A stretch of 34,512 nucleotides of DNA from a virus, in the IMG/VR virus record IMGVR_UViG_3300000956_000009, positions 1 through 34,512 of that record, one strand, 5' to 3'. The position numbers and the translations under genes are program-made. Of this stretch, positions 12,520 through 33,418 are shown in pieces. Positions within the stretch are counted from its first letter, which is position 1. Every line of letters starts with the position of its first letter. Below the pieces are notes generated by a model. It saw nothing but the letters and a program-made list of their open reading frames with translations, was not told where the DNA came from and made no database searches.

Positions 12520-12531
12520 GGAGGGTTGGTC

Positions 12532-13518: not shown

Positions 13519-13529
13519 GGAGGTTTGTC

Positions 13530-14111
13530 ATGCAAGAAGAAATTCGTCGCAAGACGAACCTCACGATTGTTCAGTACAACGAAGACACTGTATCTCGGGT
13601 CGCGGCGATTGTTGGTGGAGAGCCAACCAGCGAGCAACTTGAGCAACATACCAAGCCAGATCGCACCGTTGTCTACATTGACACGAACCTCATCACCAAT
13701 GCTGGTAAGGCTCGATTCAACAATCACTGTCTAGGAATTACTGGATTCCCGACTTTTGGACTAACAACTACAACAAGATTCTGTGTTGGTAACTCTTCAA
13801 CGGCTGTTTCAGGTTCTGACACGAACTTGAATGCATCGGCGAGCTTGACCGCGCGTTACTGCAAGCCGATTGATTCACAAGCAACGCTGACCACTACGAA
13901 CGTTTCCCAAGACACAATGCACTTTGAGACCACGATGGGCACGAGCGAAGCAAACTTTGCTTGGGAAGAATTTGGTCTCGACGTGGGATCTCCCACGGTA
14001 ACCGCTGGAATCTCGGTAAACACACTACTTACGCACGGTCTGCCATCACCGTCAGTTGGAACAAAGGGGTCCGGAGCAATTTGGATCGCTAAGGTTGACA
14101 TCGTTTCTTAG
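13530..14111 (+). CDS. Minor tail protein
   Basis: 193 aa with AAGGAGG upstream, located in the tail-tip block. Specific function unknown. Confidence 0.55.
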   Translation: MQEEIRRKTNLTIVQYNEDTVSRVAAIVGGEPTSEQLEQHTKPDRTVVYIDTNLITNAGKARFNNHCLGITGFPTFGLTTTTRFCVGNSSTAVSGSDTNLNASASLTARYCKPIDSQATLTTTNVSQDTMHFETTMGTSEANFAWEEFGLDVGSPTVTAGISVNTLLTHGLPSPSVGTKGSGAIWIAKVDIVS

Positions 14112-14137
14112 TACGGATTTCAAGGGAGGTGGAGTAG

Positions 14138-17100
14138 ATGGCACGGCTGTTTACTAACGGTTTCGAAATTAACAGCGTCACCAATGGCGTTGATTGGTCG
14201 ACTCACAGCGGCACACCGACAAACCAAACATCTGTTGTCCGCTCTGGCTCCCGTGCTGGACAAATCAATGGTCTTGGTAGTGGTGCGGCAAAAGGCTGGG
14301 GTCACCAGTTTGTAGCCACTGCTACCGGTGGTCCGTACTATGCCCGTGCATATTTTCAATACACTACGCTGCCATCGGTTACCACGGTTATCATGGCATT
14401 GTCTAATGCCATTACCTTCCCAGGGCTAAACTCTGGCGATGCCTGTCTGAAACTGACTACCGGTGGCAATGTTCAGCTGTTCATTGCTGGATCTCAAGTT
14501 GGCTCAAACTCAACAGCATTGACTAATGGTCAATGGTACATGTTGGAACTGTACGTCGATGGCACACCTGCATCTGGGTCACGAATCTGTCGAGCCCGTA
14601 TTGATGGTGTGGAGTTTGCTGGAACTGCGACCGCAACGACCTTCAACAACCCACGGACGTTGTTTGTCGGTGGGAACGTCTTCTTCGACGCATCTACCAC
14701 AGGTGTGTTCTACTGGGACGACGTTGCAGTTAATGACTCAACTGGATCAGCACAAAACTCGTACCCCGGTTCGGGTAAGGTTATTACCCTTTTCCCGGAT
14801 GCCGCAGGCGACTCCAACGCTTGGCTGAACACCGCTGCTGGTGCTGGGGCAAGCACAAACTACCAACTTGTTGATGAGAACCCACCAAACGACGCAACTG
14901 ACCTTGTTCAGTCAGTCACCGCAAACGCCCAAGACTTGTACAACTTTGGCGCATCTGGCCTGGGTGCCTCGGATACCATCAATGTGGTCCAGGTTTACTC
15001 TCGACACCGAAATAACACCGCTGACGCCACCACGTCGTTTGCTCTGGTTATTGAAAAAACTGCTGCTGGGACCAAAACTCAGGGCAGCACAATATTGCCC
15101 AACACAACCACCTGGCGGACCGGCTCCGGAAACGGTACGGCGGCTGCTGAGTGGCCGAGCCTGACGGCGTACCTCGACCCTGATGGCGCAGCATGGACAT
15201 CGACGACGATCGATTCAATGCAGGCCGGGCCGAAGCTGGTCGCGGCCGGAACCAACCGAGTCCAGGTTTCTGCTGTTTGGGTCACAATCGAATATGTTCA
15301 AGTTCCAGTTAACAAAAACCTAACTGAAACTCTTACCCGAACCGATTCACTGTCAGTCTCCGCAACAATGGAGTTGGAGGAAAGCCTTTCCCGGACCGAG
15401 TACCTTACGGTCGAGAAGTTTGGTGGATCTGAAACTGCACCAGCAAAACTTCATACTCTGACCGATTCCTTCGGTGGCGGCATACTTGACTCAAACAAGT
15501 GGACCGTGCCACCTGGGTCGGATTCTCCTACCTTCGGCACGAATCTGCTCGTGCTGCCCTGTACCGCTGCCTACACCAAGATCGACTCTTTCAAGCGGTA
15601 CGACGCCCGTAGCTCGTACATCTTCATCAAGGGCACGCCACCGGCTGTCGGCGACGGCACCCGTGAATACGCTCTGAAGCTGCGCGGTAACGGAGGGTAT
15701 GACGCCAACAGTTTTCAGTTCATCGTCACGGGGTACTCCCTACTAGCCCGAATTCGTCGCGGAGGCGTAGCGAGCGACGTATACGGAGAATTTAGCAGTT
15801 CCAATCACAAATGGCTTCGACTCCGCGAGTCGTCGGGCTTCATTTACTTTGAAACTTCCGCAGATGGCAATGTTTGGAACGTTTTCCACCAGGAAGCACA
15901 CCTGTTGGAGTCATACGTCTCAAGCATGGTCGTCACCATCGAGTGTGGGTTTTACGGAACTGAAGAAGCCTCAACAGGAACGCTAGAACTTGTCAATCTG
16001 CTCACTGCTATCACTCCTGCACCAGGACCAGGTACTTCGGTTGGTTCCGGATATGGGGACGGTGGTTACGGTGAGGGCGGTTACGGTGGCTCATCTGGTG
16101 GTGGAATTGTTATTCCTCCGCCAGCGCCAGATATTCCGGGAGACATTACCGGATCACTGCGTGCCCCGAAACTTCCAGATTGGCGGATCGCGGCTGGAGA
16201 ATGGCGGATTGGTCGTCAAATCGAGCTGACTCAGGCTTACGATATGACGGCTACCTTCCGGTTGCAAAACCCACACGAGTTGCGACTCAAGATTTTCGGC
16301 GGCGACGACCTACAGACCAACGCCATTGAAGATCTTATTACCGACATTTGGATCGACCGGGATGGGTACCCGGTCGGACTCTTCCGGGTTTTCGAAACGA
16401 AGGACCTGATCGAGCCAGACAAGTATGGTCTGGAACTTCGTGCCGTCGACTACAAGGGCATTCTGTCTCGCTACATCCTTGAAAATGAAACAACATACAA
16501 CGATACCCAGGAGAACATTGCTTGGGATCTGATTAACGACGCCCAGTCTCGGTACGGCGGGGATTTGGGTATCGTTCAAGGTATTTGGCCTGCAACAGGA
16601 GTTGTTCGGACAATTACCATGAAGGATGGCGAGCAGATTTATGGTAATATTCGTAACATGTCAATCCTAGCCAATGGCTTCGACTTCGACATTGATGCGC
16701 AAAAACGGGCGAACTTGTACTGGCGGGAACGTGGCCTAGATCGCGGTGTTGTGCTCGATTATGGCGGGACGGTAGTTGAGGTGGACCGCCATTCCGAGTC
16801 CAACAACTATGCCAATGCAATCCGGCAGAACGGCAATACCGATTTGGTCCTTTACCTTACGGCTGGTGATATTCCAAGTCGTCGGGAAGGTAGATGGGAA
16901 GCAGCTTATTCAGACGTGAATTTGAACGATTCAGCCAGCATTTCAGGAGCTGGACTTGCAAATCTGGATCGTTCATCAAAGCTGCAACCCTCCTACTCCA
17001 TGACCCTACGTCCAGGGTTTTGGAAAGGTCCAGACCACATTTGGCTAGGTGATCGTGTCACTGTTGTGCTCAAGGTTGGTCGCCTCGAAGAGGTTGTAGA

Positions 17101-17257
17101 AACACGTGTCTACGAAATCCAAATCGATCGCGACGAAAACTTGAACGAACGAGTGATTATCACCGCAGCTCGGGAGAAAGTCGACCTACGAAAGGTCCTT
17201 CGGGACCAAGGACGCCGTATTTCAGACTTGTCTCGTCGGTTCCGAGCGGATGTGTGA
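14138..17257 (+). CDS. Tail tip protein: lectin-like jelly-roll modules, Gly/Tyr linker and a C-terminal Tal/hub-like domain
   Basis: 1039 aa with GGGAGG upstream. Linker GSGYGDGGYGEGGYGG at 16043..16093. The segment from about aa 680 on (RIAAGEWRIGRQIELT...AVDYKGIL...NIAWDLINDAQ) resembles siphovirus tail-tip N-terminal hub domains. Confidence 0.75.
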   Translation: MARLFTNGFEINSVTNGVDWSTHSGTPTNQTSVVRSGSRAGQINGLGSGAAKGWGHQFVATATGGPYYARAYFQYTTLPSVTTVIMALSNAITFPGLNSGDACLKLTTGGNVQLFIAGSQVGSNSTALTNGQWYMLELYVDGTPASGSRICRARIDGVEFAGTATATTFNNPRTLFVGGNVFFDASTTGVFYWDDVAVNDSTGSAQNSYPGSGKVITLFPDAAGDSNAWLNTAAGAGASTNYQLVDENPPNDATDLVQSVTANAQDLYNFGASGLGASDTINVVQVYSRHRNNTADATTSFALVIEKTAAGTKTQGSTILPNTTTWRTGSGNGTAAAEWPSLTAYLDPDGAAWTSTTIDSMQAGPKLVAAGTNRVQVSAVWVTIEYVQVPVNKNLTETLTRTDSLSVSATMELEESLSRTEYLTVEKFGGSETAPAKLHTLTDSFGGGILDSNKWTVPPGSDSPTFGTNLLVLPCTAAYTKIDSFKRYDARSSYIFIKGTPPAVGDGTREYALKLRGNGGYDANSFQFIVTGYSLLARIRRGGVASDVYGEFSSSNHKWLRLRESSGFIYFETSADGNVWNVFHQEAHLLESYVSSMVVTIECGFYGTEEASTGTLELVNLLTAITPAPGPGTSVGSGYGDGGYGEGGYGGSSGGGIVIPPPAPDIPGDITGSLRAPKLPDWRIAAGEWRIGRQIELTQAYDMTATFRLQNPHELRLKIFGGDDLQTNAIEDLITDIWIDRDGYPVGLFRVFETKDLIEPDKYGLELRAVDYKGILSRYILENETTYNDTQENIAWDLINDAQSRYGGDLGIVQGIWPATGVVRTITMKDGEQIYGNIRNMSILANGFDFDIDAQKRANLYWRERGLDRGVVLDYGGTVVEVDRHSESNNYANAIRQNGNTDLVLYLTAGDIPSRREGRWEAAYSDVNLNDSASISGAGLANLDRSSKLQPSYSMTLRPGFWKGPDHIWLGDRVTVVLKVGRLEEVVETRVYEIQIDRDENLNERVIITAAREKVDLRKVLRDQGRRISDLSRRFRADV

Positions 17258-17927: not shown

Positions 17928-19832
17928 ATGACATCTCCGTACATCCCAGACTTGCCAGATTATAAGCAAGAACGTTGGGATATCCAGAATAACGAGCTGT
18001 GGACAGAGGCGTTCACAAACCTCGATACTCTGAATAAGTCGGTGGCGACCCTCCAAGGTACCATCGGCCAACCAACCGTGGGTCCACCACAGAACTTGCT
18101 GGTGAACGCTCCGACGGCGACTAGCATTCGGGTGTCGATTTCGGCGCCCAACGGGGCGACCCCAGACAGCTACATCATTCGGTTTTATTCACTGCCGGAT
18201 GGCACCGTCACAGTCATCAACGACATTACGAACATTTCAGCATTCCCGTACACGATTTCCTCTGGTGTTTCGGCAAACACCACGTATCGGGTTTCGGTAA
18301 CGGCTGTTCGTAGTGGCGTCGAGAGCACGTCAGTGTCCCAGGATGTGTTGACACCACCGTCTTCACCACCTGCTTCTGGAATGCCTGTGCCGAACATTGG
18401 TGTGTGGTATCCCGGATGGGGCGAAGGCCCGGACCTTGGTGACGTTGACCCTCGGGCAACCGAGATTTCAATCTTCGCCATGGTTCCGGATGGTGGTCCG
18501 CCGGGCTCAACTGGGGCAGTTCACCTTGCATATTCTCGGCAAAGTGGCTTCAACAAGCTTTTGCAGGACGTTGCATACAAACGTTCGCTTGGCGTGAAGG
18601 TTACCTTGACGCTGGGCGGCGCTGGGTCGTTCACTCGGCTGGACACCGCTGGTCGAGTAACAGCATGTTTCAACTCCATTGTGAACATCATCGATAACGA
18701 CTTCGGTGGTGCCATTGATGGGTTCTGCTGGAACATGGAGTACAACGGCACAACCCAGCTCATCTACGAAACGTATGCTGTATCTCTGATGCAGCAGCTC
18801 AAGGACTACTACGGCGAGAACTTCTTCATCACCTTCCCACCAGCGCCGTGGAAGTATGGGGCTTTCCCGTACTACGACGACGGTGACCTGGCGGAAGACA
18901 TGTTCGCCGCAGGTGTCATCGACGGCATTTACCCGCAATTCTATGACCAAACAGACTTGACTACTCAGCAAGCCAGAATTAATAATGCACTAACCGAAAT
19001 GCCGGTGTGGGCCGGATTCGTTGACGATGACTGGTCAAAGGTCGGTCCAGCATTCCAGGTGAATGCTACCGGACAGGCTAATGGTAGCCAGGCAGCGCCC
19101 ATGAGCTATGCCAGTGCGAAAACTGTCTGGGATACGCTTAAAGCAGCACACAGCGATATCGCTGGGTTCTTTGTCTGGAACTCTGGACAAAACCTCAGTG
19201 CGTTCCTGGATGTTATCTACGGTTCAGTCATCGACGATGGCGGTGCTGCACCAGCATTGTCAACGTTGACCGACGACTTCGGTTCCGAAGACACCGCAAA
19301 ATGGAGTGGATACACCTCAGGAGCTTCGGTTTCCGGTGGTGAGTTGAAGCTTCCGGCAACTTCATACTCTGCCACTGCAAATGCAATCCTGAGCGTTAAT
19401 GCTTACGATGCTCGTGCGGCGTCCGTTACCGTCCGAGTCAATGGTCTTATCACTGCTGGTACGGAATGCTACTTCACATTTGGTTTGCAAAGTGCAACAG
19501 ATCCAAGCAAATTCGTGCAGTGGCGTATCTATCAGATCCCTGGTAGCAACACCATTGAGACAAACATGGTCAACGGAACGGCGTTTTACCAGGGTATTGA
19601 CACATACAACTCGACAAACGACAAATACTTCCGGATGCGGGTCGATGGTGGAAACTGGCTGTGGGAAACCGCACCAGACTCCGCTGGTGTACCTGGATCG
19701 TGGACTACCCGTCGCACGCTCGCGCTGACAAACTTCTTCGATCTGTCCAATGTGCGTGTCTCACTTCGGGCAGAAGGGGAGGAAGCGGGCAACGGCGACT
19801 ACGACGTTGACAAGTTCAACATCGTGAGCTAG
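17928..19832 (+). CDS. FN3 + GH18-like (class III chitinase/lysozyme-like) + lectin-like module protein; candidate lysin or glycan depolymerase
   Basis: AAAGGAGGG upstream. FN3-like region at aa 52-142. GH18-like strands IGVWYPGWG, VKVTLTLGGAGS, IDGFCWNMEY, IYPQFYD and AGFFVWNSGQN. The C-terminal module is homologous to aa 437-622 of the tail tip protein. Confidence 0.7.
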   Translation: MTSPYIPDLPDYKQERWDIQNNELWTEAFTNLDTLNKSVATLQGTIGQPTVGPPQNLLVNAPTATSIRVSISAPNGATPDSYIIRFYSLPDGTVTVINDITNISAFPYTISSGVSANTTYRVSVTAVRSGVESTSVSQDVLTPPSSPPASGMPVPNIGVWYPGWGEGPDLGDVDPRATEISIFAMVPDGGPPGSTGAVHLAYSRQSGFNKLLQDVAYKRSLGVKVTLTLGGAGSFTRLDTAGRVTACFNSIVNIIDNDFGGAIDGFCWNMEYNGTTQLIYETYAVSLMQQLKDYYGENFFITFPPAPWKYGAFPYYDDGDLAEDMFAAGVIDGIYPQFYDQTDLTTQQARINNALTEMPVWAGFVDDDWSKVGPAFQVNATGQANGSQAAPMSYASAKTVWDTLKAAHSDIAGFFVWNSGQNLSAFLDVIYGSVIDDGGAAPALSTLTDDFGSEDTAKWSGYTSGASVSGGELKLPATSYSATANAILSVNAYDARAASVTVRVNGLITAGTECYFTFGLQSATDPSKFVQWRIYQIPGSNTIETNMVNGTAFYQGIDTYNSTNDKYFRMRVDGGNWLWETAPDSAGVPGSWTTRRTLALTNFFDLSNVRVSLRAEGEEAGNGDYDVDKFNIVS

Positions 19833-19910: not shown

Positions 19911-20480
19911 TTACCACGCCTTACCAAGGCCCGAAGTGTGCCATGGGTGCTGGGAATAATGCCAGGTCAGCTCGGCGGTGCCAGCAAACTTGATGTTCCG
20001 ATCCCGGCAGTCCAGAATGAACCGCCAATCTTCTTGCGGAAGTGTCCATCCCTCTGGGTGATCGGTGCGGAATCTGATTTCTTTGGCGATTTTAGCAGTT
20101 ACGCATACAGTCATTGTGGTGTGGTGCGGTTCGGTTGGATCGAAAACCCGACCCCTGTGTTGTGGAAATGGGTTATTCCCATCGAACCAGGAGTAGGTGA
20201 AGTCTGCGTTGTGCGCTACCCGAAGCTTGTGGTGAACTTCCAAGTGATTCGGGTAGAAGTAGTCGTCGTCATCGAGAAATGCTACGAAGTCGATGTCGTC
20301 GGATACCTTGGCGAGAAGTCGGTTTCTTGTTTCGGCCGCCCCATGGTGCTTGTCATCGATCTCAATGAGCACTTCGTGGGGCGGAAGTGTCTGAGTTAGT
20401 GCAGATTTTACCGCTCGTTCCAGGAACTTGGCTCGTGGTGGAATCGACGGAATCAAAACCGCAATCTTTGGTTTGTCCAT
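19911..20480 (-). CDS. Glycosyltransferase family 2 (GT-A), paralog 2
   Basis: IAVLIPSIPPRAKFLERAVKSALTQT...GAAETRNR...AFLDDDD (DxD). TAAATG junction with the upstream paralog. Confidence 0.8.
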   Translation of the reverse strand: MDKPKIAVLIPSIPPRAKFLERAVKSALTQTLPPHEVLIEIDDKHHGAAETRNRLLAKVSDDIDFVAFLDDDDYFYPNHLEVHHKLRVAHNADFTYSWFDGNNPFPQHRGRVFDPTEPHHTTMTVCVTAKIAKEIRFRTDHPEGWTLPQEDWRFILDCRDRNIKFAGTAELTWHYSQHPWHTSGLGKAW

Positions 20481-21125
20481 TTAGATCACCAGGGGCTTTC
20501 CACCTGTGTTGGAATCGTGGAAATTGTAGAGCCAAGTACGCTGTGGTACGTGATGGAACTTTGCTCCAGCATCGAGCATCTTGAGCAGCAACCCGTAGTC
20601 CTCGCAATCGCCAGAATTGTTTCCTGGCGGCAATGCGAATGAGCCCTGTTCTGGAAAGCCACCGACTTCCTTGACTAACGATGTCCGACACACGTGAGTT
20701 ACTGGGATAAAGTTACCCTTGTTGCGAAACCACCATTCCTGTTCCGGACCAAACGGCACGCCGAATGGAATCACCACCTGACCGTTTTGCAACGTTGCCA
20801 GTGGATCTTTGCCGTTGGAGAACAACGGGTACGGATAGACTAGATCAGCACCAGTTTCTTCCAGTGCTTGAATGCAAATCTGTAGGTGATCTGGTTTCAG
20901 TAGGTCATCGTCGTCCAGAAATGCGGTCCATGTAGTGTCAATGGACTGGATAATTCGGTTGCGTGTTTTTGCTGCACCTTCTCGTTCGTTGTCAACTGCA
21001 ACCAGAATCGCTTCCGGCATGTGCTCCTGGTTGGCTGCGCTGAACACTGCCTTGCTCAGGAAATGTGCTCGCTCGGGAATTGTTGGAATTGCAACAGTAA
21101 CATCGGAGAGAAAGTTAGTCATCAT
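20481..21125 (-). CDS. Glycosyltransferase family 2 (GT-A), paralog 1
   Basis: VTVAIPTIPERAHFLSKAVFSAANQE...GAAKTRNR...AFLDDDD. Its start overlaps the methyltransferase stop by 11 nt. Confidence 0.8.
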   Translation of the reverse strand: MMTNFLSDVTVAIPTIPERAHFLSKAVFSAANQEHMPEAILVAVDNEREGAAKTRNRIIQSIDTTWTAFLDDDDLLKPDHLQICIQALEETGADLVYPYPLFSNGKDPLATLQNGQVVIPFGVPFGPEQEWWFRNKGNFIPVTHVCRTSLVKEVGGFPEQGSFALPPGNNSGDCEDYGLLLKMLDAGAKFHHVPQRTWLYNFHDSNTGGKPLVI

Positions 21126-22299
21126 AACCTACAATTTCGACCTTTGGAATCGGGAAGATCATCTTACCGCCATTTTTAAGGTATTCTTGTTCACGAGCAA
21201 CGAACTGGTCCTTGAACCACCAGGGGCCAACCAGGAGGCAGTCCGGTGGGTTTGCGCGCATGTCGTCTTCGGAAATGATCTCAGCGTTGATCGCGGACAT
21301 CTTCTTACCGACTTTTTCTGGATTGCGATCTACGACATAGTCAAATTCGAGGTTTGCCGCTTGCCAAATGGTACCGCCCCGAGTTGATGCACCGTAGACG
21401 TAGATGGTCTTGCCATGTTCGCGGAGGAAGTTTACTTTGTAGGTCAGGTCAGCGAGCAGCTTTTTGGTGTTTGTCCGAAACCATTGCAGCTTTCCGGACT
21501 TGAAGAACTCTTCCTCGCGTTGCAATAGCTTGTCCACATTTGGCGAAACGAAGCGCGTCTGAGCGTGGGAAATAACCACCCGGAACACTCCACCGTTGAC
21601 CGGTCCCAGGGTCACGTCGTTGACCTCAAGGCCGTGCGCGTGCAGCAGGTTGACCAGCGTGGTGAGGCAGAAATAGGTGACGTGCTCGTGGCTGATGTTA
21701 TCGAAGGAGTTCGATTCGATCATCGTCAATAGGTAGTTTTGCTGGACAATCCAGATGCCGTCATCGGCAAGGACTTTTTTCACTCCAGCGACAAACGCGT
21801 TTGGATCATCGAGATCGTAGAACATTGAGATTGAGGTAATGATGTCAAACTTGGTGGCGAAGTAGTGTGGTGCGAAGAAGTCCGAGATGATTTGGTTTGC
21901 GTGTTGTGCAGCTTCCGGCGCAAACTGACGGAGTGGATCAATACCGATTCGATAAATGTGCTTTGGAACAAACGATAGTAGTGTGCCATCATTCGAGGCG
22001 ATGTCCAGCCAGTTTTTGGCATTCCAATGAATTGCCAACGCATCGTGGACAATGGATTCTAGGTCGTCCTTGATGGCCGGATTGACCCCAGACTTGAAGC
22101 TGTAGTTCTCGTGGTACATTTCTGATGGCGGTGCTGATTCGGAAAGCTGAGCAAGCGCACACTGCTTGCAAAACAGCAGATGTAGCGGATACTTCGCAGG
22201 CTTTGCATCGTCGTCGCGGAAATCGGACAGGTATTGGTCACCTAGATCGAGCACCGATTCCAGCTCGTCCCAGCCACAATTGCGGCAATACTCGATCAC
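21115..22299 (-). CDS. SAM-dependent C-methyltransferase-type enzyme with N-terminal zinc ribbon (NDP-hexose C-methyltransferase-like family)
   Basis: GTG start. CRNCGWDELESVLDLGDQYLSDF...CKQCALAQL zinc-ribbon pattern. SAM motif WLDIASNDGTLL. Length of 394 aa is consistent with the three-domain architecture. Confidence 0.75.
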   Translation of the reverse strand: MIEYCRNCGWDELESVLDLGDQYLSDFRDDDAKPAKYPLHLLFCKQCALAQLSESAPPSEMYHENYSFKSGVNPAIKDDLESIVHDALAIHWNAKNWLDIASNDGTLLSFVPKHIYRIGIDPLRQFAPEAAQHANQIISDFFAPHYFATKFDIITSISMFYDLDDPNAFVAGVKKVLADDGIWIVQQNYLLTMIESNSFDNISHEHVTYFCLTTLVNLLHAHGLEVNDVTLGPVNGGVFRVVISHAQTRFVSPNVDKLLQREEEFFKSGKLQWFRTNTKKLLADLTYKVNFLREHGKTIYVYGASTRGGTIWQAANLEFDYVVDRNPEKVGKKMSAINAEIISEDDMRANPPDCLLVGPWWFKDQFVAREQEYLKNGGKMIFPIPKVEIVGYDD

Positions 22300-23261
22300 T
22301 TCTTTACCTTCCGCTTATCTGCGCGATTCGGCTGGAGGTACTCACGCTTTGCCGGTGGTTTGAGTTCCTTCCGCCAGTAGTCCAGTGTGTCTACCAGGGT
22401 TTGCTCAAGTGGAATTTCTGGCTTCCAACCGGTAATGGTGTGGAACTTCTCACAACTTGGCTCAGGCAGCCGTTCTGGACCAGTCTGATAGCCGAGTCGG
22501 TACAGCCCAGGATCAGACTTCACCTTAATCTCGGCGGTTGCCTTGCTAATGAGCAGATCTAGAACCTCTTGCATTCGTACTGAGTTTGGCGAGCAGAGGT
22601 TATAGATGCCAGATTCCAGATAAATCGCACGCTCATAGGCCCGAACGATGTCTCGCACATCAGTATAATTTCGCATTGCTCGAAGATCTCCGTGCTCGAC
22701 ATACTCTCGCTCACCGAGTTCGCATTCCACGATCTTCTTGGCAAATGACGGAATGGCATACACTGAGGCATGACCGGGTCCTGTGTGGTTGAATGCCCGA
22801 GTTACCACAACATTGATCTTGTGCAGTTTCGCGTAGACAAGACCAAGCTGACCGGCAGCCAGCTTGGAAACACCGTACGGCGTATCTGGTGTAGGAACGG
22901 TTTCTTCGGTAATGAGATCAGACGTTGCATAGCCGTACTCTGCTGATGTTCCAGCAAGCATGACGCGAGCCCGATTACCGGTGTTCTTTACCGATTCCAG
23001 CACGTTGAAGGTACCGATGGTGTTGACTTCCAGTGCCCGACGCGGGTCGGTCGTACCTTCCGGGACAAATGCTTGGGCAGCTAGGTGGAAAATAAGATCT
23101 GGGTTGACCTGCTCGACATAGCTACGAATCTGCTCGTAGTCGCGAATGTCCGCACGCTGCTGGATGTCGAAACCATGCACTCGATATCCACAACGGTACA
23201 GGTACGGGACAAGATGCTTACCGACAAAGCCTAGATGTCCGGTAACCAGTACATCTTTCAT
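22296..23261 (-). CDS. Extended short-chain dehydrogenase/reductase: NDP-sugar epimerase/dehydratase/reductase
   Basis: Rossmann motif VTGHLGFVG, catalytic GTSAEYG...YGVSKLA (YxxxK) and RAFNHTGPG. GTGA overlap with the next gene. Confidence 0.8.
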   Translation of the reverse strand: MKDVLVTGHLGFVGKHLVPYLYRCGYRVHGFDIQQRADIRDYEQIRSYVEQVNPDLIFHLAAQAFVPEGTTDPRRALEVNTIGTFNVLESVKNTGNRARVMLAGTSAEYGYATSDLITEETVPTPDTPYGVSKLAAGQLGLVYAKLHKINVVVTRAFNHTGPGHASVYAIPSFAKKIVECELGEREYVEHGDLRAMRNYTDVRDIVRAYERAIYLESGIYNLCSPNSVRMQEVLDLLISKATAEIKVKSDPGLYRLGYQTGPERLPEPSCEKFHTITGWKPEIPLEQTLVDTLDYWRKELKPPAKREYLQPNRADKRKVKK

Positions 23262-23980
23262 GCCTTTGCCTTTCCGAGCTGGTACTCCGCAATCTTACGG
23301 ATGAGTTTCTTCGCATCCGCCTCACGTTCGTGCGCTGTCTCAAGGAACTTTTGTCCGGGGTTTTGTGTTGCTTGCAGCGCAAAACGTTCCTCGTAGGTGG
23401 AATCCCACACAGCCTTTGCCGCTGCTGGGTGCATGTGCTCAGTGTAAAGTTCTGGAATGAAGTGGAATCGACCGATTCGCCGAGCTACATCGACCAACCA
23501 GGTGTCTGCGTAGTCACCAGCAAAGTACTCTGGAACAAAGTAGTTGGTGGTTTCCATCCAGGTACGGTGAATAAACGGGTGCGTCGCGTGGTTGGCATCG
23601 TGTAGTCCGTCTCGGCCATACACCAGGACGATATTGTCTGGGTATTGGGCGAAAGCATCCGCAACGAGGTCGTTCCAGCCAGAAGTTCGGTACACCACAT
23701 CGTCATCGGAAAGTCCTAGCACGTCGCCAGAAGCTTTCTTTGCACAGAAATTGTGCATCATCGCGATGTTCCGGTTGCGGTCACCACGGACGCCGGTCAC
23801 CTGAGCACCGAAAGCACGGCGCAAATCAGTAACGGTGTTCAGCGTCTCCTCGTCGTCATTGTCTACGAAGAAGACGATTTCGGTCTCGTGGTTTGACGAA
23901 GCGTTGTGCAGGACCGATTCGGTCATCCGGACAACGTTCCGTGGCCGACCACGAGTGGGGCAAAGCAGGCTAATCTTCAT
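23258..23980 (-). CDS. GT-A fold glycosyltransferase
   Basis: ISLLCPTRGRP...IVFFVDNDD...GLSDDD (DxD). ATGA overlap downstream and TAATG overlap upstream. Confidence 0.65.
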   Translation of the reverse strand: MKISLLCPTRGRPRNVVRMTESVLHNASSNHETEIVFFVDNDDEETLNTVTDLRRAFGAQVTGVRGDRNRNIAMMHNFCAKKASGDVLGLSDDDVVYRTSGWNDLVADAFAQYPDNIVLVYGRDGLHDANHATHPFIHRTWMETTNYFVPEYFAGDYADTWLVDVARRIGRFHFIPELYTEHMHPAAAKAVWDSTYEERFALQATQNPGQKFLETAHEREADAKKLIRKIAEYQLGKAKA

Positions 23981-25026
23981 TACTTATCCAACCCATAGGC
24001 GTCGATGTACTTGGTGTAGTGCTCCTGAATGGTGAACTTCTTGGCGTATTCCTTCGCCTTCGCACCCATCTCCTTCCGCATATCCGCATCGTTGATGAGA
24101 TCACGCATATACTTGGTGAATTGGTATGGTTGGTTGAAGAGGAAGCCGGTCTCACCGTGCTGCACAAAGTCTCGATATGGTCCAACGTTCGAAGCTACAC
24201 ATGGGATACCGAATGCGGCGTATTCCAGTGCTTTGATGTAAGATTTCGATTGGTTGAACTTGGTGTCTAGTAGTGGCGCAATACCAATATCGAAGCCAAA
24301 GGTCTTGAAGTAGTCACCTTCGATGATGTTCTGGAATGGAAGGTGCACACTCTTGACGAAATTGTTCTCATACAAGTGACCCATAAACAGGAACCAGGCC
24401 GGATCATTTTGGACGAGTAGTTGGGCCATTTCGTTTTGGATGGTGTTAAAGTCTGCTCGGTGGGTCAGCGAACCGGTGTAACCGATAATGATGGACTTTT
24501 CCCGATCGATGTCCGAGCCAAAATCGATTTCTGCTGGCGTGTCCATCACGGTTGCGTCAATGTAGTTCGGAATTACCACAATGTTGTCATTGTAAGGCCG
24601 AAGCACTTCGGCTAGCGGGTCAGTTGAAACGGTAACGAGGTCAGCAGCCTTGACGTTTTCGATGATGTTGTTTTGGATTTCCGGGTGGGTGAAATAGTGG
24701 TAGACGTTTTGATCGTCCTTGTCCCGGTCAATGCTGAGGAAATCGTCATCGATTTCGTAGACAAGGAGCTTGTTGTGCTTCTTCTGCCGCTTGAGCCAAG
24801 CAAGTCGTTGCCATCCAGTAGATGGGTCTAGCTTGCATGTACGTTGTGCCACCACAACATCCGCTGAATCGACGTAGCCAGACCAGTTCACGTCGCCAGC
24901 AACTTGGTATCCATGATTGGATAGTTCCGCATATGGGTTGACAATGCGGTAATAACCACAACCCATCATGTCAGCCATCCAGCCGAAAACCCGCTTGGGC
25001 ATATATCCTCCAATGCAAACACGCAT
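23980..25026 (-). CDS. Glycosyltransferase group 1 (GT4, GT-B fold)
   Basis: C-terminal signature KALEYAAFGIPCVASNVGPYRDFVQHGETGFLF. 348 aa. Confidence 0.8.
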   Translation of the reverse strand: MRVCIGGYMPKRVFGWMADMMGCGYYRIVNPYAELSNHGYQVAGDVNWSGYVDSADVVVAQRTCKLDPSTGWQRLAWLKRQKKHNKLLVYEIDDDFLSIDRDKDDQNVYHYFTHPEIQNNIIENVKAADLVTVSTDPLAEVLRPYNDNIVVIPNYIDATVMDTPAEIDFGSDIDREKSIIIGYTGSLTHRADFNTIQNEMAQLLVQNDPAWFLFMGHLYENNFVKSVHLPFQNIIEGDYFKTFGFDIGIAPLLDTKFNQSKSYIKALEYAAFGIPCVASNVGPYRDFVQHGETGFLFNQPYQFTKYMRDLINDADMRKEMGAKAKEYAKKFTIQEHYTKYIDAYGLDK

Positions 25027-25047
25027 AGCCCCTCCGGAGAGGGGCTA
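25026..25047 (-). promoter_or_regulatory. 9-bp stem-loop enclosing the Shine-Dalgarno sequence and start codon of the GT4 gene
   Basis: On the minus strand, tagcccctc / tccg / gaggggcta runs straight into tg of the ATG, and GGAGGGG is base-paired in the stem. Confidence 0.45.
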
Positions 25048-25053
25048 CACAAA

Positions 25054-25245
25054 TTACTCTTCGCCAAGTAGTGCGCGTGGACTCTTCAAGTCAATGAAGA
25101 TCTTCTCATAACCACGCTTTGTCGGGTGTCCGATAAGCTTGGCTACTGGTTGTCCGATTCCCACAATCTCGAATTCGTATCCATTTCCAGACAGGAAGTT
25201 GAACGACTCGATGAGTGTGGTTACGACTTTGTCAACCTCAGACAT
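25054..25245 (-). CDS. Hypothetical small protein (63 aa)
   Basis: GAAAGG lies 6 nt upstream of the ATG. The ORF is co-oriented inside the glycan operon. Confidence 0.55.
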   Translation of the reverse strand: MSEVDKVVTTLIESFNFLSGNGYEFEIVGIGQPVAKLIGHPTKRGYEKIFIDLKSPRALLGEE

Positions 25246-25297
25246 GCTGGCCTTTCAGTTACAGATAACTTTAGTCACACAGATGTGACCGAGTCGG

Positions 25298-25471
25298 TTA
25301 CAGATTTTCGTCATGTTTGAGGATTTCGTCTTCTGTTGTGAAGACTCTACGTGTTCCTTCAACTTCGTTTCCATATTCATCTAAATCCCAAGATGTCGCT
25401 ACTACTTCTACTTGCTCAGTAATTTCAGATTTGAATGACACAAACTCTGCATGACGAACTCCTGTGTTCAT
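25298..25471 (-). CDS. Hypothetical small acidic protein (57 aa; below the ORF-track cutoff)
   Basis: ATGA start/stop overlap with the synthase gene. Hand translation: MNTGVRHAEFVSFKSEITEQVEVVATSWDLDEYGNEVEGTRRVFTTEDEILKHDENL. Confidence 0.45.
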   Translation of the reverse strand: MNTGVRHAEFVSFKSEITEQVEVVATSWDLDEYGNEVEGTRRVFTTEDEILKHDENL

Positions 25472-26841
25472 GCCCCTACCTCAACTACTTTCCTGGTAGA
25501 CCAGCCGGTTTTGAGACAGGTGAACATTCCCACATATCGTAGGAACCAACCGATATAGAGGTTCAATGTTGACGATAGTGGAGCTAGCAGGTAAATAACG
25601 AAACGCTGTCGTGCACTGGTTGTCGGCAGTACTGCGGTCAGGTATGGCAAGGACACCACATAGGAAAGTCCAACAATCCATACCCAGAACATCCAGGGGA
25701 CTGACAGGTTGGTAATAGGGCCGACCAGGAGAGCAAGCGGGATTACTGCGGTGTAGAACACGAAACTCAGGAACTGCCAGAAGGTCAGCCACCAAATTGG
25801 GCTACGGATAGAAAATGTTCGCATCAGCCATAGGTTTCCCCAAAACCAGGAACGGTGCCACCGAACTCGTTGCTTTCGTAGGTGGCTCATGTTCTCCGGG
25901 TGTAGGGTGTACCCGTGTGCAGAGCGTTGGAAAAGTGTCTTTCCTTCTAGCAGGCAATATCGAGTCATCATTGCATCGTCGCCATAGCTCATCCGGCGAC
26001 CGAAAATCTTATGTGTCATGTAGTGGTGTCGGTATTTGCGCCAAACAAACGCTCGATAGAATGCGAGTCCACCGGTGTTCACGCCAACTGAGTTGAGCAT
26101 GGCGTACGATGCTCGACCGTTCAGGAACGAACAGATGAAGGAAATCTCAATCAGTCTGGTCAGCAAGTTTTTGCTGTGGTTTTTGCCTGTCAGGAAACCG
26201 CAGACTGACATAACTTTGCGATCTGCAAATGGTTTTAGCCCATTTTCGTAGCAGTGTTCGTCTGCAAGCTCCACGTCAGAATCGACCGTGGCAATGTAGT
26301 CAGCACCCGGGCAAGCGTCCACAGCGAGCATCTGGGCGGCTCGTTTGTCGCCCTGTGGGTTGAAGGAGTACGCGATGTTCGGGGTGATGGTCCGGTACCG
26401 ACCAACGTATCGATGATCTTGGATGGTAACGGTGCGCTCTGCATACTCCTGAACAATTTCAGCCAGTTTCGGAACGTAGCCTGGGTTTCCATTTTCTACC
26501 ACATGAATTTTGTTTGATTGCCGAGTCTGTCTGATGATGGAATCCAGACATGCTCGGAACATCGTTTCGTCTTCATTGTGTGCTGGAATCACGGTAAGCA
26601 GATACCGTGAATCGTTAATGAGCGACTTTTGGAGTGGTGTGATGTTGCTTTTGTCTCGGTGGAAATGTGGGGCAATTGCGGTAAGCACTAATGCCAGGAA
26701 GGATAGTAGCATTACCACGCGGAGATTGTGGAAGTGATTTTCTAAAATTTCGTTATAGTGGTAATATGCAAGGGCACATGCTGCGCCTATCGCCAGAGTG
26801 GTGACAAGCGCAGCAAGCCTTGACCGATTTTGGTAATTCAC
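25468..26841 (-). CDS. Integral-membrane processive GT2 polysaccharide synthase (NodC / hyaluronan synthase / chitin synthase-like)
   Basis: GTG start. Motifs in family order: VIPAHNED, GDKRAAQ, VDSDV (26275..26286), NTGGLAFYR, GDDAMMT and QRVRW (25858..25872). Two N-terminal and several C-terminal TM segments. Confidence 0.85.
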   Translation of the reverse strand: MNYQNRSRLAALVTTLAIGAACALAYYHYNEILENHFHNLRVVMLLSFLALVLTAIAPHFHRDKSNITPLQKSLINDSRYLLTVIPAHNEDETMFRACLDSIIRQTRQSNKIHVVENGNPGYVPKLAEIVQEYAERTVTIQDHRYVGRYRTITPNIAYSFNPQGDKRAAQMLAVDACPGADYIATVDSDVELADEHCYENGLKPFADRKVMSVCGFLTGKNHSKNLLTRLIEISFICSFLNGRASYAMLNSVGVNTGGLAFYRAFVWRKYRHHYMTHKIFGRRMSYGDDAMMTRYCLLEGKTLFQRSAHGYTLHPENMSHLRKQRVRWHRSWFWGNLWLMRTFSIRSPIWWLTFWQFLSFVFYTAVIPLALLVGPITNLSVPWMFWVWIVGLSYVVSLPYLTAVLPTTSARQRFVIYLLAPLSSTLNLYIGWFLRYVGMFTCLKTGWSTRKVVEVGA

Positions 26842-27002
26842 TGCGCTGCAATCTTCTTCCGTCGCCCTGAGATCCGCAGAACGATGCCGATTGCCAGAAG
26901 TCCAAGTCCCACACTGAGGACCAGCACAGGAGCGGCAATCACAGCCCCACCAATACCGATGGTAGCGAATGCACTCGTAACTGGAAGACCGTAGTTACCC
27001 AT
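26838..27002 (-). CDS. Small membrane protein (54 aa) translationally coupled to the synthase
   Basis: MGNYGLPVTSAFATIGIGGAVIAAPVLVLSVGLGLLAIGIVLRISGRRKKIAAQ. TAATG overlap upstream and GTGA overlap with the synthase start. The ORF track extends to 27062. Confidence 0.55.
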   Translation of the reverse strand: MGNYGLPVTSAFATIGIGGAVIAAPVLVLSVGLGLLAIGIVLRISGRRKKIAAQ

Positions 27003-28738: not shown

Positions 28739-28973
28739 TGAAAAACCGTTCCATGAGTTTTATTTGGTATGAAGTACGGCGCTGATCGCAGTCGGGGCAC
28801 ATGTTCCAGTCCCAGTCAGTGCGTTGTGCCCATCTAAGTTCGCTGTTGTGGTAATTGATGAACTTTGCTATTTCTTCGACTTGGTTTGGTAGCGTGATGT
28901 AAACGTCGCAGTAATCATGAACCAGGTACTTCTGTCCCATGTGTGTCCGGACGTGGTAATCTTGATCGGCCAT
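28713..28973 (-). CDS. Hypothetical protein (86 aa)
   Basis: ORF co-oriented in the operon, containing a CPDC motif. No family recognised. Confidence 0.5.
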   Translation of the reverse strand: MADQDYHVRTHMGQKYLVHDYCDVYITLPNQVEEIAKFINYHNSELRWAQRTDWDWNMCPDCDQRRTSYQIKLMERFFNEPQAEAR

Positions 28974-29142
28974 CTCTGATAATCACGAGTTCCTCTCGGT
29001 CCAAGCCGTCCGCGATATAGTTACGGACGACGTCGCTAAACGAGATATTTTTGAACTCCGCGATGGCTTCTACTCTTTTAACGGTAACCTCGTCAAACTT
29101 TATGGACTTGTTAACTCCTAGAATTTTTAGTGGCTTCGCCAT
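28915..29142 (-). CDS. Ribbon-helix-helix (CopG/Arc-like) DNA-binding protein
   Basis: ATG 29142 follows GAAGAGGGG. MAKPLKILGVNKSIKFDEVTVKRVEAIAEFKNISFSDVVRNYIADGL fits a beta-strand, helix, helix pattern. First gene after the promoter. Confidence 0.6.
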   Translation of the reverse strand: MAKPLKILGVNKSIKFDEVTVKRVEAIAEFKNISFSDVVRNYIADGLDREELVIIRDGRSRLPRPDTHGTEVPGS

Positions 29143-29167
29143 TTTCTGCCCCTCTTCGTATGACTCC

Positions 29168-29196
29168 ATCGTAGCACCTGGACGTAGCACGGTCAA
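29168..29196 (-). promoter_or_regulatory. Sigma-70-like promoter TTGACC-17-TACGAT with tandem GTGCTACG repeats
   Basis: The minus strand reads TTGACCgtgctacgtccaggtgcTACGAT. The 8-mer repeat lies at 29170..29177 and 29183..29190, covering the spacer and the -10 element. Confidence 0.5.
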
Positions 29197-29328
29197 GCAC
29201 CAGATACACATAGGTGACGGTCGATGTGATGGCCGAGCCCGGACACCGGTCGTGTCGACATCTCCACGTTTGACATCACGTTCGGTGGGGTATAGAGGAA
29301 TGAAATCTCGACTTTTTGGAGGACCGTC

Positions 29329-32600: not shown

Positions 32601-32801
32601 CTACGAAGACAAATCGTCTTTTGGTACCTCAACTTTCGGTAGTCCATTCCGAGTGACAAATTCTCTGGCTTCTAGCGCCATTTCGAGACAGTCTCGGACT
32701 ACTTGACCTTTGCTGACCTTGTCTCGTTCAGCAACCTTGGTCACGACATCGAACATTTCCTTGTCAAGGACTACTGAGACATTGTACTTGTACTTCGCCA
32801 T
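32601..32801 (-). CDS. Ribbon-helix-helix DNA-binding protein
   Basis: ATG 32801 follows GGGAG. MAKYKYNVSVVLDKEMFDVVTKVAERDKVSKGQVVRDCLEMAL. The ORF track extends to 32903. Confidence 0.6.
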   Translation of the reverse strand: MAKYKYNVSVVLDKEMFDVVTKVAERDKVSKGQVVRDCLEMALEAREFVTRNGLPKVEVPKDDLSS

Positions 32802-32803
32802 TC

Positions 32804-33382
32804 TTAGGCTCCCTGCTTCTTGAGCAAACTGTAGGTCGCGTTGATCGACCCGTTCGTGCTCATGAGCACCGCATCGAAATTGTTTTTTGGTGTGTTCATC
32901 CAAGATGGCATGATTCCGGTGTTTTGTTCAGTTTTGTTGGACAGAACCTTGTACCGGCCTGCGCACGAACCAGAAGTAATGAGTACTTCTTTGTTCTGTG
33001 GCAGTGAACCTAGGTTCTGCCATCCTTTGTTTGCGTGGCCGACCAGGAGACAAGTGGGCTGGTTGAGGTATGTGACGACTTTGCCCTTGTCAATGGTTTC
33101 CTGACCGTAGAAGTCATCTACTGGGTGCAGTAGGATGACTGGGTCTTTTGCGGTTGTGCCCTTCTTTGCCGCAGACTGTGCGGTTCCGTCGCCACCACCA
33201 ACTGGGAATGGGTCTGGCAGATCCTGGAAGTTTGTGCGTGAGTTGTATGGTTCTGGAGTTTGCACTGAAACGGCAGAAGTTGAGGAAACCGTTGTAGAAG
33301 GTGCCATAACCGTGTTTCCCAGGTAACTCATGACTCCGAGTCCGGCCACTGCCAGGACTGCGGTGATCGCTGCTCGCCTCAT
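32804..33382 (-). CDS. Secreted or membrane-anchored protein with sortase-like motif order
   Basis: ATG 33382 gives the signal/anchor sequence MRRAAITAVLAVAGLGVMS. LLVGHANKGW...VLITSGS..GRYKV...AVLMSTNG resembles a sortase layout but lacks the TLxTC cysteine. The ORF track begins at TTG 33418. Confidence 0.55.
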   Translation of the reverse strand: MRRAAITAVLAVAGLGVMSYLGNTVMAPSTTVSSTSAVSVQTPEPYNSRTNFQDLPDPFPVGGGDGTAQSAAKKGTTAKDPVILLHPVDDFYGQETIDKGKVVTYLNQPTCLLVGHANKGWQNLGSLPQNKEVLITSGSCAGRYKVLSNKTEQNTGIMPSWMNTPKNNFDAVLMSTNGSINATYSLLKKQGA

Positions 33383-33389
33383 GCCAGGA

Positions 33390-33418
33390 ACTCTACAGGA
33401 GTTGCTGAGACTTGGCAA
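33390..33418 (-). promoter_or_regulatory. Sigma-70-like promoter TTGCCA-17-TAGAGT, probably producing a leaderless mRNA
   Basis: The minus strand reads TTGCCAagtctcagcaactcctgTAGAGTtcctggcATG. The -10 element ends 7 nt before the ATG and there is no SD sequence. Confidence 0.5.

Follow-up and report, generated by a model that had tools for sequence, protein, structure and literature searches.

Two putative glyco-modules in one gene train of an actinophage-like genome: a membrane synthase with a candidate miniprotein partner, and a soluble glycosyltransferase block with a predicted C-methyl sugar branch

The gene train described here occupies positions 19911-27002 of the viral sequence IMGVR_UViG_3300000956_000009 from IMG/VR (positions 1 to 34,512, 34,512 nt in all, referred to below as the window), and its ten genes recall two kinds of described system. 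On the one side stand the class I hyaluronan synthases (HAS; Chlorella virus Cv-HAS, Xenopus HAS1 and streptococcal HasA), NodC and the chitin synthases. With these the second product of the train shares a family 2 glycosyltransferase (GT2) domain of the GT-A type, flanked by transmembrane (TM) segments, and the motifs DxD, GDD, QxxRW and W(G/S)TR, while some of its relatives have a hasB-like UDP-glucose dehydrogenase (UGDH) gene as neighbour. Unlike the HAS of known structure, to which it shows ∼18% identity, the synthase has a shorter C-terminus, and unlike HAS and NodC it belongs to a family that is nearly always preceded by a dedicated miniprotein, for which those systems have no counterpart. 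Small membrane partner subunits of GT2 synthases are known in IcaD, which accompanies IcaA, and PgaD, which accompanies PgaC. On the other side stands the glycosylation of phage particles, reportedly described by Freeman and colleagues in 2023 for the mycobacteriophages Che8, Corndog and Myrna. The window resembles these phages in encoding soluble glycosyltransferases, which in some mycobacteriophages are accompanied by methyltransferases. The cassette differs from the mycobacteriophage systems in a nucleotide-sugar branch, consisting of a 3-C-methyltransferase and a reductase that resembles GDP-4-keto-6-deoxy-D-mannose reductase (Rmd). To our knowledge no such branch has been described in virion-glycosylated mycobacteriophages.

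The train is read here, with moderate confidence, as a composite of two functionally separate glyco-modules. Module A, comprising the miniprotein and the synthase, would change the surface of the infected cell, and module B, comprising six enzymes that are all predicted to be soluble (no TM segments in the hydropathy scan), would glycosylate virion proteins. The features of the train, in the order of transcription, are the following.

26838-27002 (ATG at 27002), minus strand: module A gene 1, a 54-aa single-pass membrane miniprotein (open reading frame (ORF) and hydropathy scan; upstream homologues)
25468-26841, minus strand: module A gene 2, a 457-aa membrane GT2 synthase (Pfam GT2, motifs, AlphaFold2 model)
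25298-25471, minus strand: a 57-aa acidic soluble ORF with no assigned role (ORF list; 4-nt overlap with the synthase stop)
25054-25245, minus strand: a 63-aa soluble ORF with no assigned role (ORF list; gaps of 52 and 27 nt on its sides)
25022-25051, minus strand: a G+C-rich RNA hairpin at the module A/B boundary (terminator-like scan, folding)
23980-25026, minus strand: module B, a 348-aa soluble GT-B glycosyltransferase of family GT4 (Pfam Glycos_transf_1, PHROG 7162)
23258-23980, minus strand: module B, a 240-aa soluble GT-A glycosyltransferase of the 'PTRGR' type (Pfam Glycos_transf_2, PHROG 14945)
22296-23261, minus strand: module B, a 321-aa extended short-chain dehydrogenase/reductase (SDR), Rmd-like (Pfam GDP_Man_Dehyd, Epimerase)
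21115-22299, minus strand: module B, a 394-aa putative NDP-hexose 3-C-methyltransferase (Methyltransf_13, Methyltransf_23, Methyltransf_14)
20481-21125, minus strand: module B, a 214-aa soluble GT2 (GT-A), paralogue 1 (Pfam Glycos_transf_2, PHROG 14775)
19911-20480, minus strand: module B, a 189-aa soluble GT2 (GT-A), paralogue 2, the terminal gene of the leftward operon (Pfam Glycos_transf_2, PHROG 14775)

The ten ORFs make up 20.6% of the genome and follow one another with junctions of −4, −4, +52, +27, −1, −4, −4, −11 and 0 nt; the tight coupling of the train is interrupted only by two short gaps at the two small ORFs. TM segments were found by the hydropathy scan of the ten products in the synthase and the first small protein only. 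An earlier reading of the DNA, made without database searches (the sequence-only reading), had described ten co-oriented, tightly coupled minus-strand genes covering about one fifth of the genome of a siphovirus, with a NodC/HAS-like membrane synthase, a methylated or deoxy-sugar branch and a paralogous pair of GT2 genes at the end. In all these respects it agrees with the present results. Every enzyme family that it named is backed by Pfam, PHROG and NCBIfam profile searches; the synthase assignment is backed by motifs, by sequence matches in the Protein Data Bank (PDB) and by a Foldseek search with the AlphaFold2 model; the terminal 189-aa and 214-aa GT2 proteins are paralogues with 31% identity (E 4e-24). 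The branch has, by family, the look of a methylated deoxy-sugar pathway, its SDR being closest to Rmd and its methyltransferase to 3-C-methyltransferases. The virion-type genes recognised in profile scans (terminase, portal, scaffold, major tail protein and Dit) are those of a siphovirus-type phage.

The two gene sets are distributed independently of each other. Scans of GTDB genomes, IMG/VR and JGI metagenomes yielded 168 non-redundant synthase loci in Actinomycetota genomes, prophages and viral contigs, with flanks fetched up to 10 kb; the locus counts take in related sequences and do not represent independent events. Within these flanks, relatives of both the GT4 and the GT-A protein lie beside the synthase at a single locus (L084), and a relative of the SDR or the C-methyltransferase at none of the 168. 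Conversely, the five other loci found with the SDR and the C-methyltransferase (L124-L128) have no synthase. Streptomyces phage Kromp, a contig with an integrase gene (L004) and a 58-kb siphovirus contig (L005) each carry a membrane ORF of ∼50 aa followed by the synthase, and no other gene of the cassette, and the pair also stands alone in unrelated, non-prophage chromosome contexts. When 288 neighbouring proteins from 75 synthase loci were clustered, the commonest family occurred in just 6 loci, 199 proteins were singletons, and no recurrent third partner, such as a sortase, an LCP enzyme or an exporter, was found among them. The pair is common in prophages and viral contigs; among GenBank phages it is essentially confined to Kromp, where it is annotated as 'hypothetical protein' and 'glycosyltransferase'. 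Judged by these neighbourhoods, module A is a self-contained, horizontally mobile two-gene unit. The presence of both modules in one 34-kb genome is rare, as 1 of the 168 loci has even part of the second set.

The boundary between the modules is also marked within the window. It coincides exactly with the strongest hairpin of the minus strand and with the two intergenic gaps, the only ones in the train. The hairpin at 25022-25051, the top terminator-like match on that strand with 13 pairs, contains both the Shine-Dalgarno sequence (GGAGG) and the AUG start codon of the GT4 gene. Its minimum free energy is −27.2 kcal/mol over 61 nt (z = −3.9), and equal folding was reached in none of 200 shuffles, although the total count of terminator-like matches is not above chance. 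The hairpin may act as an attenuator, as a processing or stability element, or as a translational gate. Of the two small ORFs, the 57-aa ORF shows no Pfam, PHROG, NCBIfam or PADLOC match and no relative at any fetched locus, and the 63-aa ORF no match to a Pfam, PHROG, NCBIfam or PADLOC family.

The synthase matches the Pfam GT2 families PF00535, PF13632 and PF13641. It passes none of the curated family models; its sole curated match, to NodC (TIGR04242, residues 81-450), reaches 88 bits against a family cut-off of 550. The catalytic motifs are represented by D187-S-D189, G-D288-D289, Q324-R-V-R327-W328 and the C-terminal TGW447STR450, and the motif residues (DxD, GDD, QxxRW, W(S/G)TR) are invariant across 20 homologues. 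D288-D289 and Q324/R327/W328 align with GDDRxLT and QQTRW of Cv-HAS. The only relatives among PDB sequences are the Chlorella virus and Xenopus hyaluronan synthases (E 2e-12). Using the AlphaFold2 model (pLDDT 85.6, pTM 0.87), Foldseek places Cv-HAS and XlHAS1 at the top (E ∼1e-19), followed by chitin and cellulose synthases (∼1e-11), and the model superposes on Cv-HAS and XlHAS1 at TM-scores of 0.6–0.7. Hydropathy indicates two N-terminal and two C-terminal membrane segments, to which the model adds further C-terminal helices. By sequence, motifs and predicted fold, the protein is a membrane GT2 of the HAS/NodC/chitin-synthase clade. Since it is HAS-like in sequence and fold but passes no curated threshold, the designation 'HAS/NodC-like membrane synthase' is justified, while 'hyaluronan synthase', the automatic annotation of its relatives in the source databases, is not.

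Synthase relatives show identities of 50–55% in metagenomic phage contigs, 45–50% in Micromonosporaceae, from ∼43% down to 32% in Streptomyces and 32% in Kromp (gp79); an identical protein is not on record in the contig index. A lone marginal IMG/VR match from the scan for close relatives (L003) was unconfirmed by tblastn and set aside. A UGDH gene lies beside the pair in about a dozen loci, mostly within 0.5 kb, but not in this phage. The order UGDH, LPXTG miniprotein, synthase is found in L007/L122 (8485-11620), L111 and L141, which belong to Paractinoplanes rishiriensis, an IMG/VR contig and a metagenome contig. This has-operon-like arrangement hints that some members of the family use UDP-glucuronic acid and make a uronic-acid polymer. 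Synthase homologues with 33–39% identity also occur in Lactobacillales (L013-L017; Companilactobacillus, Lactobacillus, Enterococcus, Isobaculum and Vagococcus). No miniprotein precedes them in any of the four assessable loci (L013-L016), L017 ending at a contig edge, and in the Enterococcus locus (L015) a UGDH-like ORF takes its place.

The miniprotein of the window (MGNYGLPVTSAFATIGIGG...LRISGRRKKIAAQ) consists of a short N-terminal peptide with YG, the pentapeptide LPVTS, a hydrophobic span and a basic tail, and its stop codon overlaps the synthase start by 4 nt. Five residues (MGNYG) precede the pentapeptide; in the relatives there are 3–15, often with Y-G, and no passenger domain was found in the miniprotein or in these relatives. 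In most loci a homologue is encoded immediately before the synthase; those of L004, L005 and Kromp (gp78) have LPKTG, LAKTG and LASTG, respectively, at the homologous position. Miniprotein classes were scored over 122 assessable non-redundant loci with at least 28% synthase identity, by regular expressions on six-frame ORFs, so that the classes without pentapeptide or without miniprotein may contain mis-called starts. Of the 122 loci, 59 have an upstream ORF in which a canonical L[PA]xTG is followed by a hydrophobic stretch ∼30 residues long and then by a basic tail. In 50 loci the miniprotein has the TM span and the tail but no pentapeptide, 3 have a variant pentapeptide, the window copy among them, and 10 have no such upstream ORF. 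A juxtamembrane tail motif R[LF]x[FW]RRG[KR] is common to the pentapeptide and TM-only classes.

Published searches for sortase substrates look for a pentapeptide, a hydrophobic span and consecutive basic residues (PMC13251363). All three elements are found in 62 of the related miniproteins, namely the 59 above and 3 more at less than 28% synthase identity, and the window copy has the hydrophobic span (residues 26-58 of the window ORF) followed by RRKK. Among the relatives, one exceeds the cut-off of TIGR01167 (LPXTG_anchor); its score on NF058583, the NCBIfam model 'LAXTG motif-containing small protein', is 23 bits; several others match this model weakly, all those tested falling far below its cut-off of 65 bits. 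The miniproteins resemble sortase sorting signals, among them those of NF058583 and of the class E sortase substrates of actinomycetes, in L[PA]xTG, hydrophobic span and basic residues, but differ from such substrates in having neither passenger domain nor signal peptide, about half of the family lacking the motif altogether and the window copy reading LPVTS. No paper on small LAXTG proteins was found, although the NCBIfam curators evidently noticed them, and a literature search for a phage synthase/sortase-signal pair returned nothing relevant; the pairing of a synthase with a sorting-signal miniprotein appears undescribed in the literature searched.

We read the miniprotein as a membrane subunit devoted to the synthase, with a function comparable to that of IcaD and PgaD; in many lineages it is also predicted to present a sortase handle. 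Like IcaD and PgaD, it is a short membrane protein whose gene adjoins, and is translationally coupled to, that of a processive GT2 synthase, and it is kept across very different contexts. Unlike them, it has a single TM helix, its gene lies upstream rather than downstream, and no sequence relationship is apparent; moreover, about half of the miniproteins carry a sortase pentapeptide, which IcaD and PgaD do not. A bolder and rather doubtful proposal is that the miniprotein would serve as a peptide anchor for the product of the synthase, its extracytoplasmic residues being covalently joined to the nascent glycan before the host sortase cuts L[PA]xT|G and transfers the conjugate to peptidoglycan. 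In other variants the miniprotein could couple synthase activity to the availability of sortase or lipid II, or act as a sortase decoy. If the anchor proposal were true, it would amount to sortase-dependent tethering of a synthase-made capsule to the wall in actinobacteria and in the phages that have taken up the pair; glycan anchoring would then follow a new principle, which a phage puts to use during infection.

In module B, the SDR contains TGxxGxxG and YxxxK motifs and matches GDP_Man_Dehyd (171 bits) and Epimerase (150 bits). Among solved structures it is nearest to Rmd (2pk3, E 7e-52) and 6x3b (E 5e-48); no NCBIfam equivalog is passed, and 4,6-dehydratase models also match at lower scores. 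It is most plausibly the 4-ketoreductase of the sugar branch, closest to Rmd. The methyltransferase has three domains above the Pfam cut-offs, PF08421 (55.5 bits), PF13489 (45.5 bits) and PF08484 (102 bits), arranged as a CxxC...CxxC zinc domain (C5/C8/C44/C47), an S-adenosylmethionine domain and a C-terminal domain. Alignments that span the whole protein were obtained with the D-mycarose 3-C-methyltransferase 4rv9 (E 2e-43), TcaB9 (3ndi) and the sugar 3-C-methyltransferase 5t64. Relatives occur in only 7 GenBank phage records, and those with 48–56% identity are found in metagenomic phage contigs and actinomycete genomes. Judging by family membership, the two enzymes would make an NDP-6-deoxy-3-C-methyl-hexose. 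The best solved relatives of the pair are thus Rmd and the 3-C-methyltransferases (TylC3/mycarose enzyme, TcaB9, KijD1); unlike the known C-methyltransferases of cellular antibiotic or lipopolysaccharide sugar pathways the pair is phage-borne, and it is kept together in five other loci. In Coxiella, a GDP-based route to virenose has been proposed.

The GT4 protein of module B shows 34–36% identity to gp5/gp6 of the Streptomyces phages Zuko and KimJongPhill, 41% to its counterpart in a Rhizomonospora bruguierae prophage (L128) and 34–38% to two copies in the forest-soil phage contig L127; a GT4-only scan of IMG/VR returned nothing. Relatives of the GT-A protein are known from 63 Streptomyces phage records as well as from phages of Arthrobacter, Actinoplanes and Pelagibacter, and in L127 a protein with 39% identity is encoded immediately upstream of the SDR. 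The 214-aa GT2 shows 35–37% identity to Zuko gp106, KimJongPhill gp107 and Atuin gp169, and 35% to a GT2 of L127. Glycosylation of DNA by these enzymes was set aside, as no recognisable base-hydroxymethylase or hypermodification gene was seen among the ORFs scanned, and the one marginal PADLOC match, of the GT4 protein to PDC-M48B (E 6.5e-4, 17 bits), was disregarded.

Homologous GT4, GT-A and small GT2 proteins (26–41% identity) are encoded by Zuko, KimJongPhill, Atuin, large (131–134 kb) Streptomyces phages such as Tribute and Peebs, and L128. In Zuko and KimJongPhill the cassette is annotated as epimerase, GT4, glycosyltransferase, methyltransferase and glycosyltransferase; unlike the window, these GenBank phages lack the 3-C-methyltransferase and the synthase. 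No functional study of these cassettes or that of L128 was found in the literature searched. A module of this kind is therefore, by sequence, already known from annotated phages, the added feature being the predicted C-methyl sugar branch. The sequence-only reading had considered a membrane processive synthase combined with a methylated or deoxy-sugar branch in a small siphovirus to be, to its knowledge, an undescribed system. This stands for the combination, which is absent from the megablast of the window and from the literature searched, but not for the soluble block, a recurrent phage module of which annotated, partial versions exist in Zuko, KimJongPhill and Atuin.

The SDR is 50–55% identical to its counterparts upstream of the C-methyltransferase in L126, L127 and L128. 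The two genes are adjacent and in the same order in L124, L125, L127 and L128, and separated by two small ORFs in L126; except in L124 and L125, these loci have detectable relatives of the GT-A, GT4 and small GT2 proteins. The Rhizomonospora prophage repeats the order GT4, GT-A, SDR, C-methyltransferase and has terminase (41%), portal and capsid genes in common with the window. Its block lies just upstream of the terminase gene. In L124 the block lies between the capsid gene and tail-side genes, in L127 between the capsid gene and a homologue of the 193-aa ORF at 13530-14111 of the window, which sits among tail genes, and in L126 ∼3 kb upstream of the capsid gene. A search for sister phages with a flanking cassette, in which the helicase was run against JGI metagenomes, found nothing. 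The module B of L127, a 49-kb contig, is larger (11167-17150, between capsid and tail-side genes) and continues after the SDR and C-methyltransferase with a second methyltransferase, a UGDH, a GT2, a GT4 and a GT4-methyltransferase fusion.

The position of the block beside or inside the head genes elsewhere favours glycosylation of the virion with a 6-deoxy-3-C-methyl-hexose. Since no flippase, Wzy polymerase, initiating phosphoglycosyltransferase or exporter was recognisable in scans of the genome, the acceptor must be cytoplasmic or at the inner leaflet of the membrane. The sequence-only reading had argued from the early-strand position of the cassette that it acts in the infected cell. This argument is weak: the related block lies among or near head genes in other phages, and cluster F1 mycobacteriophages, close to the virion-glycosylated Che8 and Rita, have putative glycosyltransferase genes near the 3' end of the genome (PMC11256854). 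According to the summary of Freeman and colleagues in the same paper (PMC11256854), phage-encoded transferases glycosylate mycobacteriophage virions from genes away from the structural operon, and in the window the cassette likewise lies outside that operon.

A model for the train can be drawn up as follows, in which we infer the identities of the sugar, the acceptor and the polymer as well as the biological pay-off. Both modules would be expressed from the distal end of the leftward, replication-side operon. The synthase would take UDP-sugars at the cytoplasmic face, polymerise a β-linked chain of the N-acetylglucosamine (GlcNAc) type, possibly containing uronic acid, and extrude it through its own TM channel. 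The TM helix of the miniprotein and its conserved cytoplasmic RRG[KR]-type tail probably contact the synthase, and in many relatives the exposed LPXTG or LAXTG would offer a handle to a host sortase; the likely outcome is an altered surface on the infected cell. For module B, a host 4,6-dehydratase would supply an NDP-4-keto-6-deoxyhexose, most likely GDP-4-keto-6-deoxy-mannose, the phage methyltransferase would methylate C-3, and the reductase would then give the NDP-6-deoxy-3-C-methyl-hexose. The four soluble transferases would assemble this sugar and other host sugars into a short glycan, carried by a cytoplasmic acceptor for which virion proteins are the likeliest candidates.

Glycosylation of the virion is the best-supported role of module B, with a probability close to even for this presumed acceptor. 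The main alternative, unlikely but by no means negligible, is that the same enzymes would decorate a lipid-linked wall glycopolymer of the host (teichoic-acid-like, rhamnan or arabinogalactan-type) with the C-methyl sugar at the cytoplasmic face, thereby perhaps changing receptors and blocking superinfection, by analogy with prophage TarP or seroconverting Gtr systems. It is consistent with enzymes that are all soluble and need nucleotide sugars only, with a block that lies within the leftward non-structural operon, with the related transferases of the Arthrobacter phage Atuin, which are encoded among nucleic-acid-metabolism genes, and with the PHROG class of these families, 'moron, auxiliary metabolic gene and host takeover'. 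The location of the block within or abutting the head-gene cluster in L124, L127 and L128, however, is unusual for exclusion morons, and long-term masking of receptors would be of less obvious value to a phage in which no integrase or recognisable lysogeny module was seen. Several observations speak against the composite reading or parts of it. The block lies on the strand opposite the structural genes; the capsid and tail-tube proteins show no obvious Ser/Thr-rich C-terminal tail; tblastn with the GT4, GT-A and GT2 proteins of the window gave no Mycobacterium phage at E ≤ 1e-3 (for GT4, among the matches listed); and, as the example of TarP shows, host wall polymers at the inner leaflet are equally within reach of soluble phage transferases. 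As regards module A, the WGTR-type motif at the extreme C-terminus of the synthase resembles that of NodC, which makes short oligomers rather than polymers, no N-terminal signal peptide was found in the miniprotein, and its pentapeptide LPVTS is none of the recognised sortase motifs (LPXTG, LAXTG, LPXTA, NPXTG, SPXTG, PPXTG; PMC13251363). Because half of the related miniproteins lack a pentapeptide, sortase may be irrelevant to the core function.

That all ten genes form one pathway, as the sequence-only reading had it in describing a single coupled glycan operon, is very improbable. In such a pathway the soluble transferases would make the primer or the side chains of one branched or primed envelope polysaccharide, which would accord with the co-orientation and largely translational coupling of the genes and with viral contig L084, where the synthase and the GT4/GT-A relatives lie within ∼8 kb. 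The independent distribution of the two gene sets, and the two gaps and the stable hairpin exactly between them, argue otherwise. In addition, channels of the HAS, cellulose, chitin and poly-N-acetylglucosamine synthase type pass linear chains, and we know of no product of such a channel that is branched by cytoplasmic transferases. Somewhat less improbable, though still clearly unlikely, is a module A that makes short oligosaccharides like the chito-oligomers of NodC, as a signal, a primer or a metabolic sink, instead of an exported polymer. NodC is the only curated family to match the synthase, over residues 81-450, and no TM helices follow the WGTR-type motif. The NodC score nevertheless stays at 88 of the 550 bits of the cut-off, the fold search favours hyaluronan synthases over the next synthase class by about seven orders of magnitude in E-value, some relatives of the pair are linked to a UGDH gene as in has operons, and streptococcal HasA, of similar size, makes long chains.

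On the composite reading, each module has implications of its own. Should module B glycosylate the virion, the known range of phage-particle glycosylation would widen from mycobacteriophages to a broad set of mostly uncultured actinophage-like viruses and would come to include a phage-made branched-chain (C-methyl) deoxysugar, which matters for the immunogenicity, stability and host range of phages. With module A, Actinomycetota and their phages appear to share an undescribed and very widespread two-gene system, which couples a HAS-like synthase to a partner that, in many lineages, consists of a sortase sorting signal and nothing more. This system provides a testable handle on the retention of synthase-made surface glycans on Gram-positive walls and bears on what a phage gains from a polymer made on the cell under infection.

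The first 50 nt of the contig are repeated exactly and in direct orientation at its end (1-50 and 34463-34512), which indicates a complete, circularly assembled genome of ∼34,462 bp. The plus strand carries, at ∼0.3–19.8 kb, genes for the large terminase, portal, scaffold, capsid, major tail protein, tape measure, Dit and large tail proteins, as well as a holin-like membrane protein and a 634-aa FN3-containing protein. Read from 33.4 kb down to 19.9 kb, the minus strand has genes for two ribbon-helix-helix-like proteins, a primase-like protein, a helicase and several proteins without assignment, followed by the cassette. Profile scans of the ORFs revealed no integrase or recognisable lysogeny module, and no tRNA or Rfam family was found in the genome. 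The head genes show 27–38% identity to those of Zuko and 27–41% to those of the Rhizomonospora prophage, which places the phage with the actinobacteriophages; neither the cassette nor the structural arm had a megablast match among 50,697 GenBank phages. At 51%, the G+C content of the genome is low by the standard of the actinomycetes in which the closest homologues occur. The cassette (0.48–0.54) equals the remainder of the genome in this respect and is therefore not a recent, unameliorated insert.

One further gene, given here for context, converges on the end of the cassette.

17928-19832, plus strand: a 634-aa FN3/GH18-like protein, convergent to the cassette (profile searches)

This gene comes after that of the holin-like membrane protein. 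Its product combines FN3, a divergent, chitinase-like domain of glycoside hydrolase family 18 (GH18) and a C-terminal domain in common with the 1039-aa tail protein. A word-index homologue search returned only the protein itself; HMMER found 174 relatives of the middle domain, and 18 of 30 aligned members show a match to Pfam Glyco_hydro_18. A profile of these relatives matches solved chitinases (E 3e-34), while the motif of the window copy reads DGFCWNME as against DGxDxDxE in GH18. Enzymes of GH18 act on GlcNAc-containing glycans, the type of chain expected of a synthase of the HAS/NodC/chitin-synthase type. By these matches, the protein is a candidate lysin, or a candidate binder or depolymerase of a GlcNAc-containing polymer; since its gene follows the holin-like gene, it may simply be the endolysin. 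In Dactylosporangium fulvum (L121), a CBM2-FN3-GH18 gene is situated ∼2 kb from a synthase pair.

On the minus strand, a 204-aa ORF (32804-33418) is predicted to have an N-terminal membrane anchor and an extracytoplasmic domain in which a His and a Cys are 24 residues apart. Matches were obtained to PHROG 17228 'peptidase' and to 'cysteine protease' genes of the Streptomyces phages Zuko, KimJongPhill and Samy. The protein was considered as a phage sortase and rejected, as no Pfam (E ≤ 0.5) or PDB sequence match was obtained and the His-Cys distance of 24 residues is unlike that of sortases. The sequence-only reading had placed the cassette downstream of an RHH-controlled promoter; promoter-like matches are no commoner in the genome than in shuffled sequence. 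The small ribbon-helix-helix-like proteins are encoded at 28915-29250 and 32601-32903 (minus strand) and show weak matches to RHH_1, DUF6364 and PHROG 876; the gene at 28915-29250 is closely preceded by a sigma-70-like promoter match (29196-29168).

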